From Escherichia coli (GTDB lineage: Bacteria > Pseudomonadota > Gammaproteobacteria > Enterobacterales > Enterobacteriaceae), in NCBI RefSeq assembly GCF_030384885.1, contig NZ_CP128613.1: a stretch of 64,000 bases of DNA, one strand, 5' to 3'. How positions within the stretch are numbered: the stretch's first letter is position 1; each line of letters starts with the position of its first letter. A program made the position numbers and the translations under genes. Below, one piece after another: positions 12,219-60,329 of this stretch. Under the pieces are notes generated by a model. That model made no database searches, was not told the origin of the DNA, and saw only the letters and a list, made by a program, of their open reading frames with translations.

Positions 12219-12338
12219 GGATGTCGGTGCGGCTGGCCTACGCTCTCGCACTGACCTTCAGGCTTGATAAGACGCGTTAAGCGTCGCATCAGGCAATGTG
12301 CACCCTACGTTGGATGCGGCGCGAGCGCCTTATCCAAC
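12219..12338. repeat. REP/BIME palindromic units directly abutting the stop codon of the GH127 gene
   Basis: ggcttgataagacgcgttaagcgtcgcatcaggc and ggatgcggcgcgagcgccttatccaacctac REP-type palindromes. Confidence 0.8.
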
Positions 12339-14309
12339 CTACGGATGGCAATGCTTTTCCTCATTCACCCAGATCCGCATTTCGCCTTCACCCCGGTTAG
12401 CCCAGCTAAACCACGGGATAAATGTCAGAGTTTGCGGCTGGCGTTTGGCTGGCGCGCTGTCGTAATGCCACAGCGGTTGCTGCTCTGGATAGCTCTGTTC
12501 ATACCGGTAACCCGGTGCCTGGATTAAGATCTTATGGCTGAACAATCCCTTACCTTCAAATGTCGTAAATGGCGCATCGGTGGGCAGCCACAGATTATGC
12601 AGTGACTCGCCGTTGTCGGCCTGTTCCAGGCAATACACCAGCGGGCCGCGCTGAATCGCCACTTTTCCGGCGACGTGACGCACCAGCGGGTTACCGTAAA
12701 CGCGACGTACCGGCATTGGCAACGTCAGATTCAGCGTGTCGCCCTCCTGCCATTCGCGGGTAATGTGCAAATACCCTTTACGAATATCCTGCTCGACCTC
12801 TTCCCCATTCAATGTAATCTGCGGCTGTGTGCACCAGTCCGGCAGACGTAAAGCCAGCGTATGACGCACCGGCTGGGGCGATTCAACCGCAATTGTCACC
12901 TGTTCCTGCCACGGATAGTTTCCGCTAACCCGCAGACGCAGCGTGCCATTTTCTACCGGCACTTCCATGCTGTTTCCTGCGTAGATGTTGATATACAACG
13001 CATCTTCACGCGGCGTGTAGAGATAATGACCAATCGAGGTTAGCACGCGGGCGATATTTGGCGGACAACAAGCGCAACCAAACCAACGCTGGCGGATCGG
13101 CTTAACGTGATCGTAGATATGGTTGAATTTCAGCGATTTTGGATGTACTTCCAGCGGATTCACATAGAAGAAATGTTTGCCATCCAGCGCCATGCCGCCG
13201 AGCACGGTGTTGTACAGTGCGCGCTCCATCACATCGGCATAGTGACTGTCGCCTTCCATTTCCAGCATTCGCCGGGCGAACATCATCAGGCCGATGGAAG
13301 CACAGCTTTCGGCGTATACCGTGTCATTCGGCAGATCGTAATCGCTGCTGAACGCTTCGCCGCTGCTTTGTGAGCCAATGCCGCCGGTAATATATAACTG
13401 ACGCTGGGCCATATTGTTCCACAGCCGCAGGCAGTCCTGACGCTTGCTTTCATCGTGACTTAAACGCGCGAGATGCGCGACGCCGGTCATCAGGTAGACA
13501 AAACGTACCGCGTGACCAATGGCGGTTTGCTGCTGTGCGATGGGCAAATGTGCCTGGCTGTAGGCTTTGTCTTTCACCATCCACGCCGGGCCGTAGGTGT
13601 GCCAGTGCGAGGTCTGTCCGCGCTTTTCATATTCCTGGTCGTAATAGTGCGGTTGCGCACCACGCTGTTCGACAAAATAGTTCGTCAGCGCCAGGTAGCG
13701 CGGCTCTTCGGTCACTTCATACAGGCGCATTAGTGCCAGTTCAATTTCCGGGTGACCAGGATAACCGTGTAACTTACTTTCACCTGGACCAAATACGCTG
13801 TCGATATGATCGGCCAGACGGCAAACCACTTCCAGCAAGCGCCGCTTGCCCGTGGCCTGGAAGAAGGCGACTCCGGCTTCAATCAGATGACCGGCGCAGT
13901 AAAGTTCATGACACTCCGCCAGATTGCTCCAGCGTTCTTCGGGCGCTTTTACCGTAAAGTAAGTATTGAGATAGCCATCTTCGCACTGGGCGGAAGCGAC
14001 CAGTTCGATTACCTCGTCAGCAGTTTTTTCCAGTTCGGCATCCGGCTTCTGGCACAGCGACCAGGCTACCGCTTCCAGCCATTTGGCGACGTCGCTGTCC
14101 TGAAACACCATCCCGTAAAATTCACCGTCTTGCAGTCCTGCGGCAATGCGAAAGTTTTCAATCGCATGGCTGGGTTCCGCTTCTGGGATACGATCGTTCA
14201 AGGCATCCCACTGATAAGGAATCACCACGTCGCGGACCAGTTGTTGGTACTGACCGAGGAACGGATCGCTGACCGTCAGTTTATGCAGATCGACTTCCGA
14301 AATGTTCAT
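12339..14309 (-). CDS. Glycoside hydrolase family 127 (DUF1680; beta-L-arabinofuranosidase-like)
   Basis: Start chosen at ATG 14309 (MNISEVDL) with AAGGAG RBS, about 656 aa; contains E-S-C (codons near 13298-13310) and C-A-C-C (near 13065-13076) matching the Zn/Cys catalytic motifs of GH127; 10 bp after the transporter stop. Confidence 0.8.
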   Translation of the reverse strand: MNISEVDLHKLTVSDPFLGQYQQLVRDVVIPYQWDALNDRIPEAEPSHAIENFRIAAGLQDGEFYGMVFQDSDVAKWLEAVAWSLCQKPDAELEKTADEVIELVASAQCEDGYLNTYFTVKAPEERWSNLAECHELYCAGHLIEAGVAFFQATGKRRLLEVVCRLADHIDSVFGPGESKLHGYPGHPEIELALMRLYEVTEEPRYLALTNYFVEQRGAQPHYYDQEYEKRGQTSHWHTYGPAWMVKDKAYSQAHLPIAQQQTAIGHAVRFVYLMTGVAHLARLSHDESKRQDCLRLWNNMAQRQLYITGGIGSQSSGEAFSSDYDLPNDTVYAESCASIGLMMFARRMLEMEGDSHYADVMERALYNTVLGGMALDGKHFFYVNPLEVHPKSLKFNHIYDHVKPIRQRWFGCACCPPNIARVLTSIGHYLYTPREDALYINIYAGNSMEVPVENGTLRLRVSGNYPWQEQVTIAVESPQPVRHTLALRLPDWCTQPQITLNGEEVEQDIRKGYLHITREWQEGDTLNLTLPMPVRRVYGNPLVRHVAGKVAIQRGPLVYCLEQADNGESLHNLWLPTDAPFTTFEGKGLFSHKILIQAPGYRYEQSYPEQQPLWHYDSAPAKRQPQTLTFIPWFSWANRGEGEMRIWVNEEKHCHP

Positions 14310-26512: not shown

Positions 26513-26613
26513 TGCCGGATGCGGCTTAAACGCCTTATCCGGCCTACAAATTCTTCCAAATTCAATATATTGCAGAAATGATGTAGGCCTGATAAGCGTA
26601 GCGCATCAGGCAA
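26513..26613. repeat. REP/BIME palindromic units
   Basis: gccggatgcggcttaaacgccttatccggcctac and gtaggcctgataagcgtagcgcatcaggc. Confidence 0.85.
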
Positions 26614-45203: not shown

Positions 45204-45419
45204 GCTAAATAATAGAGCAACCTTTAATAATCTTCTGATGAATAAAGATTGTCTCATATATTAATTTTATGAGATTTTTTTAGGATTATATCAAGGAGAA
45301 GAAAAGAACTTATTAAGCTAGAATAGCTGCGGGTGCTTGAGACTGTTTGTCTCAGGTATTCACCGAAAGGCAGACAGAGAAAAGCCCCACCTGACTATAA
45401 ATCAAAGTGAGGCTACCCT

Positions 45420-45632
45420 ATGCCTGAACACCATAAGGTTAGCCTCTTACTCGTTAGAAATCAACACAGGAGGCTGGGAATGCCGCAGAAATATAGATTA
45501 CTTTCTTTAATAGTGATTTGTTGCACGCTTTTATTTTTCACCTGGATGATAAGAGATTCACTGTGTGAATTGCATATTAAACAGGGGAGTTATGAGCTGG
45601 CGGCATTTTTAGCCTGCAATTTGAAAGAGTAA
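45420..45632 (+). CDS. hokA: Hok-family type I toxin locus: mokA reading frame (45420-45632) with nested hokA toxin ORF (45480-45632, 50 aa)
   Basis: MPQKYRLLSLIVICCTLLFFTWMIRDSLCELHIKQGSYELAAFLACNLKE is a Hok-family small TM toxin; AGGAGG RBS before the hok ATG; overlapping upstream mok frame. Confidence 0.8.
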   Translation: MPEHHKVSLLLVRNQHRRLGMPQKYRLLSLIVICCTLLFFTWMIRDSLCELHIKQGSYELAAFLACNLKE

Positions 45633-45820
45633 GAGTCTTCGGCGGGAAGTTATTCCCGCCTTTCTTACGGCGTTGCGCATTCTCATTGCACCCAAATTTA
45701 TTCTTCACAAAAATAATAATAGATTTTATTACGCGAACGATTATTTATTTCCTGAATAAACAAATAAAAAAATCCCCGCCATTTGGCAGGGATCTTAGAT
45801 TCTGTGCTTTTAAGCAGAGA

Positions 45821-46033
45821 TTACAGGCTGGTTACGTTACCAGCTGCCGGGCCTTTAGCGCCGCTTTCGATGGTGAAGGACACTTTCTGACCTTCGTCCA
45901 GAGATTTGTAACCATCGTTCTGGATAGCAGAGAAGTGTACGAACACGTCTTTAGAGCCATCGTCAGGAGTGATGAAGCCGAAGCCTTTGTCAGCGTTGAA
46001 CCATTTTACGATACCAGTCATTTTACCGGACAT
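45821..46033 (-). CDS. cspA: Major cold shock protein CspA
   Basis: 70-aa [24 protein letters not shown], recognised; terminator hairpin at about 45784-45812. Confidence 0.95.
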
Positions 46034-46193
46034 AGTGTATTACCTTTAATAATTAAGTGTGCCTTTCGGCGATATGGCGTGCTTTACAGATTTTGAAGCG
46101 TTAAAGGAATGTGCACTACGAGGGGTATCAACGATAACTCTTGAAGGGACTTGCCTTACTACACTGCTTTAATGGTCTGTACGTCAAACCGTT
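46034..46193 (-). promoter_or_regulatory. cspA long 5' untranslated leader (cold-box region) and promoter
   Basis: About 160 bp upstream of the cspA ATG; the long structured leader is known from the literature; boundaries approximate. Confidence 0.55.
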
Positions 46194-54073: not shown

Positions 54074-55282
54074 ATGACACCTTCAAATTATCAGCGTACT
54101 CGCTGGCTGACACTCATCGGTACTATCATTACCCAGTTTGCCCTGGGGTCGGTTTATACCTGGAGTCTGTTTAACGGCGCGCTTTCTGCCAAGCTGGGGG
54201 CTCCGGTAAGCCAGGTTGCTTTCTCTTTCGGCTTGTTAAGTCTGGGGCTGGCAATTTCGTCTTCTGTTGCGGGCAAATTGCAAGAACGTTTTGGTGTTAA
54301 ACGCGTCACTATGGCTTCCGGCATTTTGCTGGGATTAGGTTTCTTCCTGACAGCACATTCCAACAACCTGATGATGCTGTGGTTAAGCGCCGGTGTGTTG
54401 GTTGGTCTGGCGGATGGTGCGGGTTACCTGTTGACGCTCTCTAACTGCGTGAAGTGGTTCCCGGAGCGTAAGGGACTCATCTCTGCTTTCGCTATTGGTT
54501 CTTATGGACTTGGTAGTCTGGGTTTCAAATTTATCGATACGCAACTGTTGGAAACGGTCGGTCTGGAAAAAACCTTTGTTATTTGGGGCGCGATTGTACT
54601 GGTGATGATTATCTTTGGCGCAACGTTAATGAAAGATGCGCCGAAACAGGAAGTGAAAACCAGCAATGGTGTGGTGGAGAAGGATTACACGCTGGCAGAG
54701 TCGATGCGTAAACCGCAGTACTGGATGTTAGCAGTTATGTTCCTGACTGCCTGCATGAGTGGCCTGTATGTGATTGGCGTGGCGAAAGATATCGCTCAAA
54801 GTCTGGCGCATCTTGATGCAATTTCCGCAGCCAATGCTGTGACGGTTATTTCCATCGCCAACCTTTCTGGTCGTCTGGTGCTGGGCATTCTGTCTGACAA
54901 AATCGCCCGTATCCGTGTTATCACCATTGGTCAGGTCATTTCGCTGGTGGGCATGGCGGCCCTGCTGTTTGCACCATTGAATGCAGTGACGTTCTTTGCA
55001 GCGATTGCCTGCGTGGCATTTAACTTCGGCGGCACTATCACGGTGTTCCCGTCACTGGTCAGTGAGTTCTTCGGCCTAAATAATCTGGCAAAAAACTACG
55101 GTGTGATTTACCTCGGTTTCGGAATCGGCAGCATTTGTGGTTCGATTATCGCTTCACTGTTTGGCGGATTCTATGTGACATTCTACGTGATTTTCGCCCT
55201 GCTGATTCTGTCACTGGCGCTTTCTACGACGATTCGCCAGCCAGAGCAGAAAATGTTGCGTGAGGCGCATGGCTCCCTTTAA
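54074..55282 (+). CDS. yhjX: MFS transporter YhjX (oxalate/formate antiporter family)
   Basis: Start at ATG 54074 (MTPSNYQRTRWLTL) giving 402 aa. Confidence 0.9.
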   Translation: MTPSNYQRTRWLTLIGTIITQFALGSVYTWSLFNGALSAKLGAPVSQVAFSFGLLSLGLAISSSVAGKLQERFGVKRVTMASGILLGLGFFLTAHSNNLMMLWLSAGVLVGLADGAGYLLTLSNCVKWFPERKGLISAFAIGSYGLGSLGFKFIDTQLLETVGLEKTFVIWGAIVLVMIIFGATLMKDAPKQEVKTSNGVVEKDYTLAESMRKPQYWMLAVMFLTACMSGLYVIGVAKDIAQSLAHLDAISAANAVTVISIANLSGRLVLGILSDKIARIRVITIGQVISLVGMAALLFAPLNAVTFFAAIACVAFNFGGTITVFPSLVSEFFGLNNLAKNYGVIYLGFGIGSICGSIIASLFGGFYVTFYVIFALLILSLALSTTIRQPEQKMLREAHGSL

Positions 55283-57388: not shown

Positions 57389-57465
<77 letters not shown>

Positions 57466-57471
57466 AATTCG

Positions 57472-57500
57472 AAAAGCCTGCTCAGCGAGCAGGCTTTTTT
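57472..57500 (+). terminator. Rho-independent terminator of proK
   Basis: aaaagcctgctcagcgagcaggctttttt. Confidence 0.8.
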
Positions 57501-57515
57501 GCATTTGAAGCCCAT

Positions 57516-57787
57516 GAGGATGAGAACCTCCGGGGGCGGGGAGGTTCGACTCGAGCGAAGCGAGAGAACGTTGCGCCAGCAACGGCCCGCAGGGCGAGCC
57601 ACGAAGTGGCGAGTAATCCTCTATCACCGACCAATTTAGAAAAACCAGCCTACGGGCTGGTTTTTTGCTTTCTGCGACCTGAAGAGGATAAGAACCTCCG
57701 GGGGCAGGGAGGTTCGACTCGAGCAAAGCGAGAGAACGTTGTGGCAGCAACGGCCCGCAGTGGCGAGTAATCCTCTGGCACCGACCA
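57516..57787 (+). repeat. Two tandem degenerate repeat units (57516-57633 and 57681-57787), each ending in a tRNA-Pro 3'-end-like sequence, separated by a terminator-like hairpin (57640-57668)
   Basis: Units share gagaacctccggggg(c/a)ggggaggttcgactcgagc...gcgagagaacgttg...cagcaacggcccgcag...tggcgagtaatcctct(a/g)(t/g)caccgacca; final 19 nt resemble the proK 3' end. Confidence 0.7.
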
Positions 57788-58414
57788 AAACGGCCCCGCA
57801 TTCATTGTCGGATACAGCGTACCTGTCTTATCCGATCTAAACGGCAACACACCACATATTTCCCTGCCAAATTTGCGCCCCACATCTCACTATCCATTAA
57901 CGGATTTGTGACAGAATCCATTGTCTTTTTTTATATTTGCTTAAATCTTTTTTTGCGTTACTTATGGCTGGCGCTGGCATTTTCCGCTGTGCGTTTTAGC
58001 GTTCATGGTATTAATCGCTCAGATATCCATCTTTTCCTCAGATTTTTTTCATTAAATGCATAAAACTTAATCACCAAATGTTGCTAAATATTAAGCTGAT
58101 TGTTCTGGTTATGTTGGCGTAGCACAAATTTCTCTGCTGCAAATAGCTGTTTGAAGTTTTTTTAATCTTTGTTTGTGGATTCTCACCGTTGGTGTAAATC
58201 CCGGTTGGCTGTATTGACGTTTTCACATTCTGTTGACAGATTGTAGGTCACGAGGGGCATTTTATGGAGGATCCGCACTGTTACACTGATGTTAATTAGT
58301 ACGGCATCCCCACCTCATAACGTTGACCCGACCGGGTAAAAAACAAAAAAGGTCAGGCAGCGACAACCCACTGCAAAGGGTTAAAACAACAAACATCACA
58401 ATTGGAGCAGAATA

Positions 58415-60022
58415 ATGCGTATTTCCTTGAAAAAGTCAGGGATGCTGAAGCTTGGTCTCAGCCTGGTGGCTATGACCGTCGCAGCAAGTGTTCAGGCTAA
58501 AACTCTGGTTTATTGCTCAGAAGGATCTCCGGAAGGGTTTAACCCGCAGCTGTTTACCTCCGGCACCACCTATGACGCCTCTTCCGTACCGCTTTATAAC
58601 CGCCTGGTTGAATTTAAAATCGGCACCACTGAAGTGATTCCGGGCCTCGCTGAAAAGTGGGAAGTCAGCGAAGACGGTAAAACCTATACCTTCCATCTGC
58701 GTAAAGGTGTGAAGTGGCATAACAACAAAGAATTCAAACCGACGCGCGAACTGAATGCCGATGACGTGGTGTTCTCGTTCGATCGTCAGAAAAACGCACA
58801 AAACCCGTACCATAAAGTTTCTGGCGGCAGCTACGAATACTTCGAAGGTATGGGCTTGCCGGAGCTGATCAGCGAAGTGAAAAAGGTGGACGACAACACC
58901 GTTCAGTTCGTGCTGACTCGCCCGGAAGCGCCGTTCCTTGCTGACCTGGCAATGGACTTCGCCTCTATTCTGTCAAAAGAATATGCTGACGCGATGATGA
59001 AAGCCGGTACGCCGGAAAAACTGGACCTCAACCCAATCGGCACCGGCCCGTTCCAGTTACAGCAATATCAAAAAGATTCCCGTATTCGCTACAAAGCGTT
59101 TGATGGCTACTGGGGCACCAAACCGCAGATCGATACGCTGGTCTTCTCTATTACTCCTGACGCTTCCGTGCGTTACGCTAAATTGCAGAAGAACGAATGC
59201 CAGGTGATGCCGTACCCGAACCCGGCAGACATCGCTCGCATGAAGCAGGATAAATCCATCAACCTGATGGAAATGCCGGGGCTGAACGTCGGCTATCTCT
59301 CGTATAACGTGCAGAAAAAACCACTGGATGACGTGAAAGTTCGCCAGGCACTGACCTATGCGGTGAACAAAGACGCGATTATCAAAGCGGTGTATCAGGG
59401 CGCTGGCGTATCAGCGAAAAACCTGATCCCGCCAACCATGTGGGGCTATAACGATGATGTTCAGGACTACACCTACGATCCTGAAAAAGCGAAAGCCTTG
59501 CTGAAAGAAGCGGGTCTGGAAAAAGGCTTCTCTATCGACCTGTGGGCAATGCCGGTACAACGTCCGTATAACCCGAACGCTCGTCGCATGGCAGAGATGA
59601 TTCAGGCAGACTGGGCGAAAGTCGGCGTACAAGCGAAAATCGTTACCTACGAATGGGGTGAGTACCTCAAGCGTGCAAAAGATGGCGAGCACCAGACGGT
59701 AATGATGGGCTGGACTGGCGATAACGGGGATCCGGATAACTTCTTCGCTACCCTGTTTAGCTGCGCTGCCTCTGAACAAGGCTCCAACTACTCAAAATGG
59801 TGCTACAAACCGTTTGAAGATCTGATTCAACCGGCGCGTGCTACCGACGACCACAACAAGCGTGTTGAACTGTACAAACAAGCACAGGTCGTGATGCACG
59901 ATCAGGCTCCGGCACTGATCATCGCTCACTCCACCGTGTTTGAACCGGTACGCAAAGAAGTTAAAGGCTATGTGGTTGATCCATTAGGCAAACATCACTT
60001 CGAAAACGTCTCTATCGAATAA
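58415..60022 (+). CDS. dppA: Dipeptide ABC transporter periplasmic binding protein
   Basis: 535-aa ORF with signal peptide, recognised. Confidence 0.95.
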   Translation: MRISLKKSGMLKLGLSLVAMTVAASVQAKTLVYCSEGSPEGFNPQLFTSGTTYDASSVPLYNRLVEFKIGTTEVIPGLAEKWEVSEDGKTYTFHLRKGVKWHNNKEFKPTRELNADDVVFSFDRQKNAQNPYHKVSGGSYEYFEGMGLPELISEVKKVDDNTVQFVLTRPEAPFLADLAMDFASILSKEYADAMMKAGTPEKLDLNPIGTGPFQLQQYQKDSRIRYKAFDGYWGTKPQIDTLVFSITPDASVRYAKLQKNECQVMPYPNPADIARMKQDKSINLMEMPGLNVGYLSYNVQKKPLDDVKVRQALTYAVNKDAIIKAVYQGAGVSAKNLIPPTMWGYNDDVQDYTYDPEKAKALLKEAGLEKGFSIDLWAMPVQRPYNPNARRMAEMIQADWAKVGVQAKIVTYEWGEYLKRAKDGEHQTVMMGWTGDNGDPDNFFATLFSCAASEQGSNYSKWCYKPFEDLIQPARATDDHNKRVELYKQAQVVMHDQAPALIIAHSTVFEPVRKEVKGYVVDPLGKHHFENVSIE

Positions 60023-60057: not shown

Positions 60058-60158
<101 letters not shown>

Positions 60159-60329
60159 TGACCAAAGCGTACTTTGTCAACAATCTGCATACCCGGTGGT
60201 GCTGTGCCTTTAAGTGCAGCGCCATCCGGCAGCAATACTTAATTCCTTGTCCTATAAGGGCGGGAATTGATTTGTGAGCAATACAGACTCGCAGTTCCAG
60301 GCTGCGGGTCACTACAGAGAATCCGGGTT

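Follow-up and report, generated by a model that had tools for sequence, protein, structure and literature searches.

The dppA leader and its surroundings

The window, by which we mean the whole 64-kb stretch of Escherichia coli chromosomal DNA analysed here, contains dppA, the first gene of dppABCDF; a collinear genome has eptB, tRNA-Pro, two RtT repeats and dppABCDF around the site. The tRNA-Pro gene (57389-57465, plus strand) lies between eptB and the dppA promoter region, and it is followed on the same strand by the two tandem RtT-family repeats at 57500-57633 (100 bits) and 57667-57787 (69 bits). The start of dppA falls on the same base (58415) in the PGAP annotation of a 99.9% identical genome, and in 5422 of the 5426 complete E. 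coli genomes the segment 57900-58700 has a match of at least 95% identity, in a region that is annotated with dppA. The leader and the beginning of the operon are laid out as follows, with positions relative to the dppA start in brackets.

58250..58414, plus strand: dppA 5' untranslated leader, 165 nt (the 5' end at -165 follows the E. coli dppA::gfp fusion described by Urban & Vogel 2007, PMC1807950)
58325..58354, plus strand: second conserved leader island (-90..-61) with an A-rich loop, from the conservation profile and alignment; candidate Hfq site
58385..58401, plus strand: predicted core pairing site for GcvB R1, AACAACAAACAUCACAA (-30..-14), from the IntaRNA-like search and co-folding
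58386..58400, plus strand: 15-nt segment with four ACA motifs, ACAACAAACATCACA, unique in the window and matching the description of Salmonella dppA (PMC3879156)
58404..58407, plus strand: Shine-Dalgarno sequence GGAG, 7 nt before the ATG (-11..-8), read directly from the sequence
58415..60022, plus strand: dppA coding sequence, dipeptide-binding periplasmic protein of 535 aa, from the open reading frame list and E. coli annotation

Upstream of the leader, a promoter candidate could be recognised by eye, consisting of TTGACG at 58214-58219, a 17-nt spacer and CAGATT at 58237-58242, and its distance fits a transcript start at -165; a strict sigma-70 promoter scan made no call for the promoter expected from this start.

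The initial annotation had pointed to a CA-rich leader segment just upstream of dppA, which is indeed present: a string search of the window found aaaacaacaaacatcacaattggagcag as an exact match at 58383-58410, and the proposed span of 58370-58414 ends 1 nt before the ATG. The C/A-rich element is real, but the pairing core described below occupies only 58385-58401/04 and not the whole of that span. A or C stands at 18 of the 19 positions of 58383-58401. Composition alone does not make this segment unique, as seven such A/C-rich clusters occur on the two strands of the window, compared with about 2.9 expected. The arrangement of four non-overlapping ACA triplets within 15 nt is far rarer: 58386-58400 is its sole occurrence in 128 kb (both strands), and a first-order Markov model gives an expectation of 0.12 for the window.

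Directly 5' of the C/A-rich block, we also noticed a small hairpin, AACCCACTGCAAAGGGTT, at 58365-58382 (plus strand). In other genera the CCC/GGG stem is retained and extended by a fourth G-C or C-G pair (CCCG..CGGG, CCCC..GGGG), at which position E. coli has an A/A mismatch, and the hairpin is absent from many other Enterobacterales leaders. Several RNA-type features lie elsewhere in the window. The 300-nt spacer between dppA and dppB contains a match to the Rfam family ES036/CssrF at 60081-60123 (minus strand) and a sub-threshold match to naRNA4 at 60127-60162; these spacer matches (60081-60162) may be REP-type repeats, with other copies at 12261-12339 and 26548-26590. A cspA thermoregulator leader was found at 45766-46193 on the minus strand (501 bits), where PGAP names the cold-shock gene cspE, and a sok/hokA type I toxin-antitoxin locus lies at 45331-45632.

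Predicted duplex between GcvB and the dppA leader

A search of the 64-kb window showed that gcvB is absent from it, and our query was the 206-nt GcvB that lies between gcvA and ygdI in an E. coli genome (L001:1501-1706, 100% identical to this intergenic region) and scored 199 bits against Rfam RF00022. Of 5426 complete E. coli genomes, 5425 have the gene, and in 5389 of these 5425 it is at least 99% identical to the query. One genome, NZ_AP018488.1, carries both the exact query GcvB and the exact dppA leader of the window. Relative to the Rfam consensus, the R1 region of E. coli GcvB holds an 8-nt insert, uuguguug (nt 73-80, L001:1573-1580), which contributes to the part of the dppA duplex formed by nt 73-82; an 8-nt R1 deletion has been described in the endogenous gcvB of the laboratory strain Top10F' (Tree et al. 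2014).

The initial annotation had proposed an interaction prediction between GcvB and this leader as the check, and both approaches that we used placed the top interaction here, with R1. When GcvB was co-folded with an RNA comprising the 165-nt leader and 36 nt of coding sequence, a continuous intermolecular helix was predicted between 58385-58404 and GcvB nt 62-82, with G75 bulged and pair probabilities of 0.7-1.0, in which the first G of the Shine-Dalgarno sequence pairs with C62. Our own IntaRNA-like search, which adds the opening energies of both RNAs to the hybridisation energy, gave as its best site 58385-58401 (-30..-14) with GcvB nt 65-82 at E=-12.25 kcal/mol, composed of -18.4 kcal/mol for the hybrid, 0.6 kcal/mol for opening the target and 5.5 kcal/mol for opening the sRNA. 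The predicted duplex thus comprises 17-20 bp with the G/U-rich R1 (nt 62/65-82) and a single bulged G, and duplexfold on the fragments returned -22.1 kcal/mol for 19 bp with one bulge. Because the target opening cost is so low, the prediction is of an unstructured C/A-rich block, and 58385-58401 is likewise unpaired in the predicted minimum free energy structure of the leader. RNAduplex on the full-length leader and GcvB yielded an end-to-end hybrid of -98 kcal/mol, which we discarded as meaningless because the program ignores intramolecular structure.

How far the prediction stands out

The energy of the site is only moderately distinctive. Dinucleotide shuffles of the leader reached the observed energy in 16 of 300 cases (z=-1.9), and in an unrestricted scan of 1276 chunks from both strands the dppA site came about 15th, with some 14 others equal or better; those that outscored it lie mostly within genes or antisense to them. 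Perfect 10-mers complementary to GcvB are not in excess in the window (33 versus 28.6 expected). When the comparison is confined to annotated start regions in the window, dppA ranks first of 56 (-12.5, against a mean of -4.4 and a standard deviation of 2.6). Energy alone is therefore insufficient to establish or single out the dppA site, as is usual for sRNA target prediction; it is singled out by position, conservation and published experiments.

Close behind dppA for R1 are the start regions of wecH (41599, minus strand; -17..+8, E=-11.65) and xylA (36722; -54..-38, E=-11.2), neither of which is mentioned in the GcvB regulon paper of 2021 (online)/2022. The top site of the whole-window scan lies in yhjX at 54646-54659 (plus strand; E=-15.8), where ACAGGAAGTGAAAA is perfectly complementary over 14 nt to GcvB nt 131-144, the conserved R2 region. 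A 14-mer match to GcvB is expected in about 7% of Markov-random windows, no link between GcvB and yhjX was found in the open literature, and we treated this site as a chance match.

Conservation of the site

To compare leaders across species, dppA loci were fetched by a degenerate pattern on the coding motif CSEGSPEGFNPQ, so that the selection was independent of the leader itself. Of the 120 loci returned, all named ones belong to the Enterobacterales, and there was in addition one unclassified Proteobacteria MAG. With E. coli GcvB standing in for the GcvB of each species, the best site used R1 and fell over -40..-5 in 94 of 102 distinct Enterobacterales leaders. Predicted pairing was weakest in a group of leaders that includes two from Xenorhabdus (L037, L103) and two from Providencia (L079, L082), together with those of a Pantoea stink-bug symbiont (L004) and of Arsenophonus (L031), neither of which has an evident C/A-rich block.

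An alignment of 109 distinct Enterobacterales leaders shows low conservation at -60..-32, followed by a sharp rise at -31..-15 that continues through the Shine-Dalgarno sequence, where the GGAG positions are 97-100% conserved. At -30..-21 the A+C fraction exceeds 0.9 across species, including where exact identity drops. In the CAUCACA core (-21..-15), the positions -20..-15 are 80-97% conserved and C-21 is poorly aligned (21%). U-19, the only base in the core other than A or C, is 80% conserved; its partner, A70, is the only A in R1 and lies within the R1 motif UGUGAUG, which is written in upper case, that is, as conserved, in the Rfam consensus. Within E. coli, the 61 nt at -50..+11 show no difference in 5409 of 5422 genomes, although identity over the surrounding 801 nt is only 95-99% in 3733 genomes. 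Conservation is accordingly stronger support for the site than energy. Its sequence, predicted duplex, accessibility, rank among start regions and conservation were all obtained directly in this work.

A second conserved island in the leader

The island at -90..-61 (58325-58354), GACCGGGTAAAAAACAAAAAAGGTC, is common to many Enterobacteriaceae. It is predicted to form a GACC/GGUC stem enclosing the A-rich loop GGGUAAAAAACAAAAAA, and the stem reads GGCC/GGCC in Citrobacter. We tentatively propose that this stem-loop could be a high-affinity docking site for the distal face of Hfq that makes dppA a strong GcvB target, such a site being implied by the tight binding of Hfq to the dppA 5' 166 nt, although we regard this as rather unlikely. 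Co-folding also paired R3 of GcvB (nt 148-158, next to the R3 seed) with the complementary GACCGGGUAAA at 58330-58340 (plus strand), and this contact was rejected: in an R3-restricted test, 42 of 300 shuffles reached the score, which is not above chance, and the GGGTAAA of this segment is kept in only 16 of 108 leaders.

Discussion

We are highly confident that the block at -30..-14, a C/A-rich translation enhancer, represents the canonical site at which GcvB targets E. coli dppA mRNA; a duplex with R1 would mask it, with translation blocked as a result. The proposal that this CA-rich element is the documented pairing target of the GU-rich region of GcvB is borne out by the predicted R1 pairing, by the conservation of the site and by the literature. 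In PMC9299463, dppA is listed as an R1 target with the status 'Verified' in E. coli and Salmonella (Table 1), and RIL-seq, CLASH and MAPS all gave high counts for the pair. GcvB repressed an E. coli dppA::gfp fusion that starts at -165 about 3-fold, an effect that shrank to 1.6-fold in a delta-hfq background (PMC1807950). PMC4104026 describes direct R1 pairing as 'rigorously demonstrated' by a GcvB deltaR1 mutant and footprinting, crediting Sharma et al. 2007, and also reports a ternary complex of Hfq, GcvB and dppA. Such published work is our source for repression in vivo, for its dependence on R1 and Hfq, for the footprinting and for the enhancer activity, and we infer that the mechanism would be unchanged in the present strain.

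The proposed mechanism can be outlined as follows. The block at -30..-14, which is C/A-rich, unstructured and directly adjacent to the Shine-Dalgarno sequence on its 5' side, would promote translation initiation through its ACA motifs. In glycine- or nutrient-rich growth, GcvB would be made under activation by GcvA, and its single-stranded G/U-rich R1 (nt ~62-82) would anneal, assisted by Hfq, to the C/A block. The duplex so formed, 17-20 bp long, would abut or overlap the Shine-Dalgarno sequence and may reach its first G. It would thereby mask the enhancer and block 30S binding, and DppA synthesis and dipeptide uptake would fall.

A refinement of the initial annotation is that the C/A block itself enhances translation. 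This comes from experiments with Salmonella dppA, whose GcvB target was described as a 15-nt stretch with four ACA motifs close to the Shine-Dalgarno sequence (PMC3879156). Deletion of the 15-nt ACA segment lowered dppA-lacZ expression by 96%, and randomisation of the ACAs caused up to about 100-fold loss, independent of predicted structure. From these results, the authors concluded that the ACAs are essential for dppA translation and that the C/A block is an enhancer silenced by GcvB; both the ACA-enhancer and the footprinting experiments were done with the Salmonella leader and not with the present E. coli leader. The same losses, together with the A+C richness at -30..-21 that persists across species despite lower exact identity, would also fit the explanation that the block is conserved mainly as an ACA-dependent, ribosome-recruiting enhancer, with GcvB pairing being secondary, or irrelevant in the present strain. 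However, an enhancer function is compatible with GcvB targeting, and PMC3879156 itself has GcvB silencing this enhancer. Moreover, U-19 and the CAUCACA core are conserved and complement the family-conserved UGUGAUG of R1, which is more specific than A/C richness, and GcvB is present in all but one of the 5426 E. coli genomes; we therefore consider the enhancer as the main reason for conservation to be very improbable.

It is scarcely credible that the main role of the element is to bind the distal face of Hfq (A-R-N repeats) or to pair with another sRNA, with incidental complementarity to GcvB: AAAACAACAAAC can be read as consecutive A-R-N triplets, PMC4104026 reports that the 5' 166 nt of Salmonella dppA bind Hfq with high affinity in gel-shift assays, about 10-fold tighter than GcvB does, with the distal face as an inference from AgvB competition, and 5% of the shuffled leaders reach the observed energy, but the ternary complexes and the R1-dependent repression, including the deltaR1 and footprinting evidence (PMC9299463 and PMC4104026), speak against it, a more A-rich candidate Hfq site lies upstream at -83..-62, and no other sRNA partner for the site was found in the literature examined. 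Both explanations are poorly supported as sole explanations, and neither is incompatible with targeting by GcvB R1.

[quoted passage not shown] There is no substantive difference; the window carries the E. coli allele, and the likeness to Salmonella is one of description. The only Salmonella leader in our set, that of subsp. arizonae (L101), reads ACAATATACATCACAA and has three ACAs. Other mRNAs for amino-acid and peptide transporters, namely oppA, gltI, argT, livJ/K, yifK and sstT, have an element of the same kind, C/A-rich and unstructured, within the ribosome-binding site or a short way upstream of it; the consensus target of R1 is given as CACAACA in PMC4104026, and enhancer activity has also been reported for the gltI and yifK elements. 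These R1 targets differ from the present site in that they belong to other genes, that the distance between site and Shine-Dalgarno sequence varies (it is far upstream in gltI) and that none lies within the window. The anti-sRNA AgvB, encoded by EHEC prophages, carries a C/A-rich mimic of such targets and pairs with the same R1, as described in PMC4104026, but it is a trans-acting decoy RNA and not an mRNA leader, and it is absent from the window.

The initial annotation had recorded the site as known control and not as a novelty, which agrees with its prior publication: the dppA site of GcvB is already known, and its confirmation here adds nothing new biologically, although it shows that the earlier reading of the sequence was accurate. 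Docking of Hfq at -90..-61, if true and unmapped so far, would be a modest new detail of this known system. The dppA site is a textbook case in which a C/A-rich translation enhancer is silenced by an sRNA, and through it the GcvB regulon couples dipeptide uptake to amino-acid availability.
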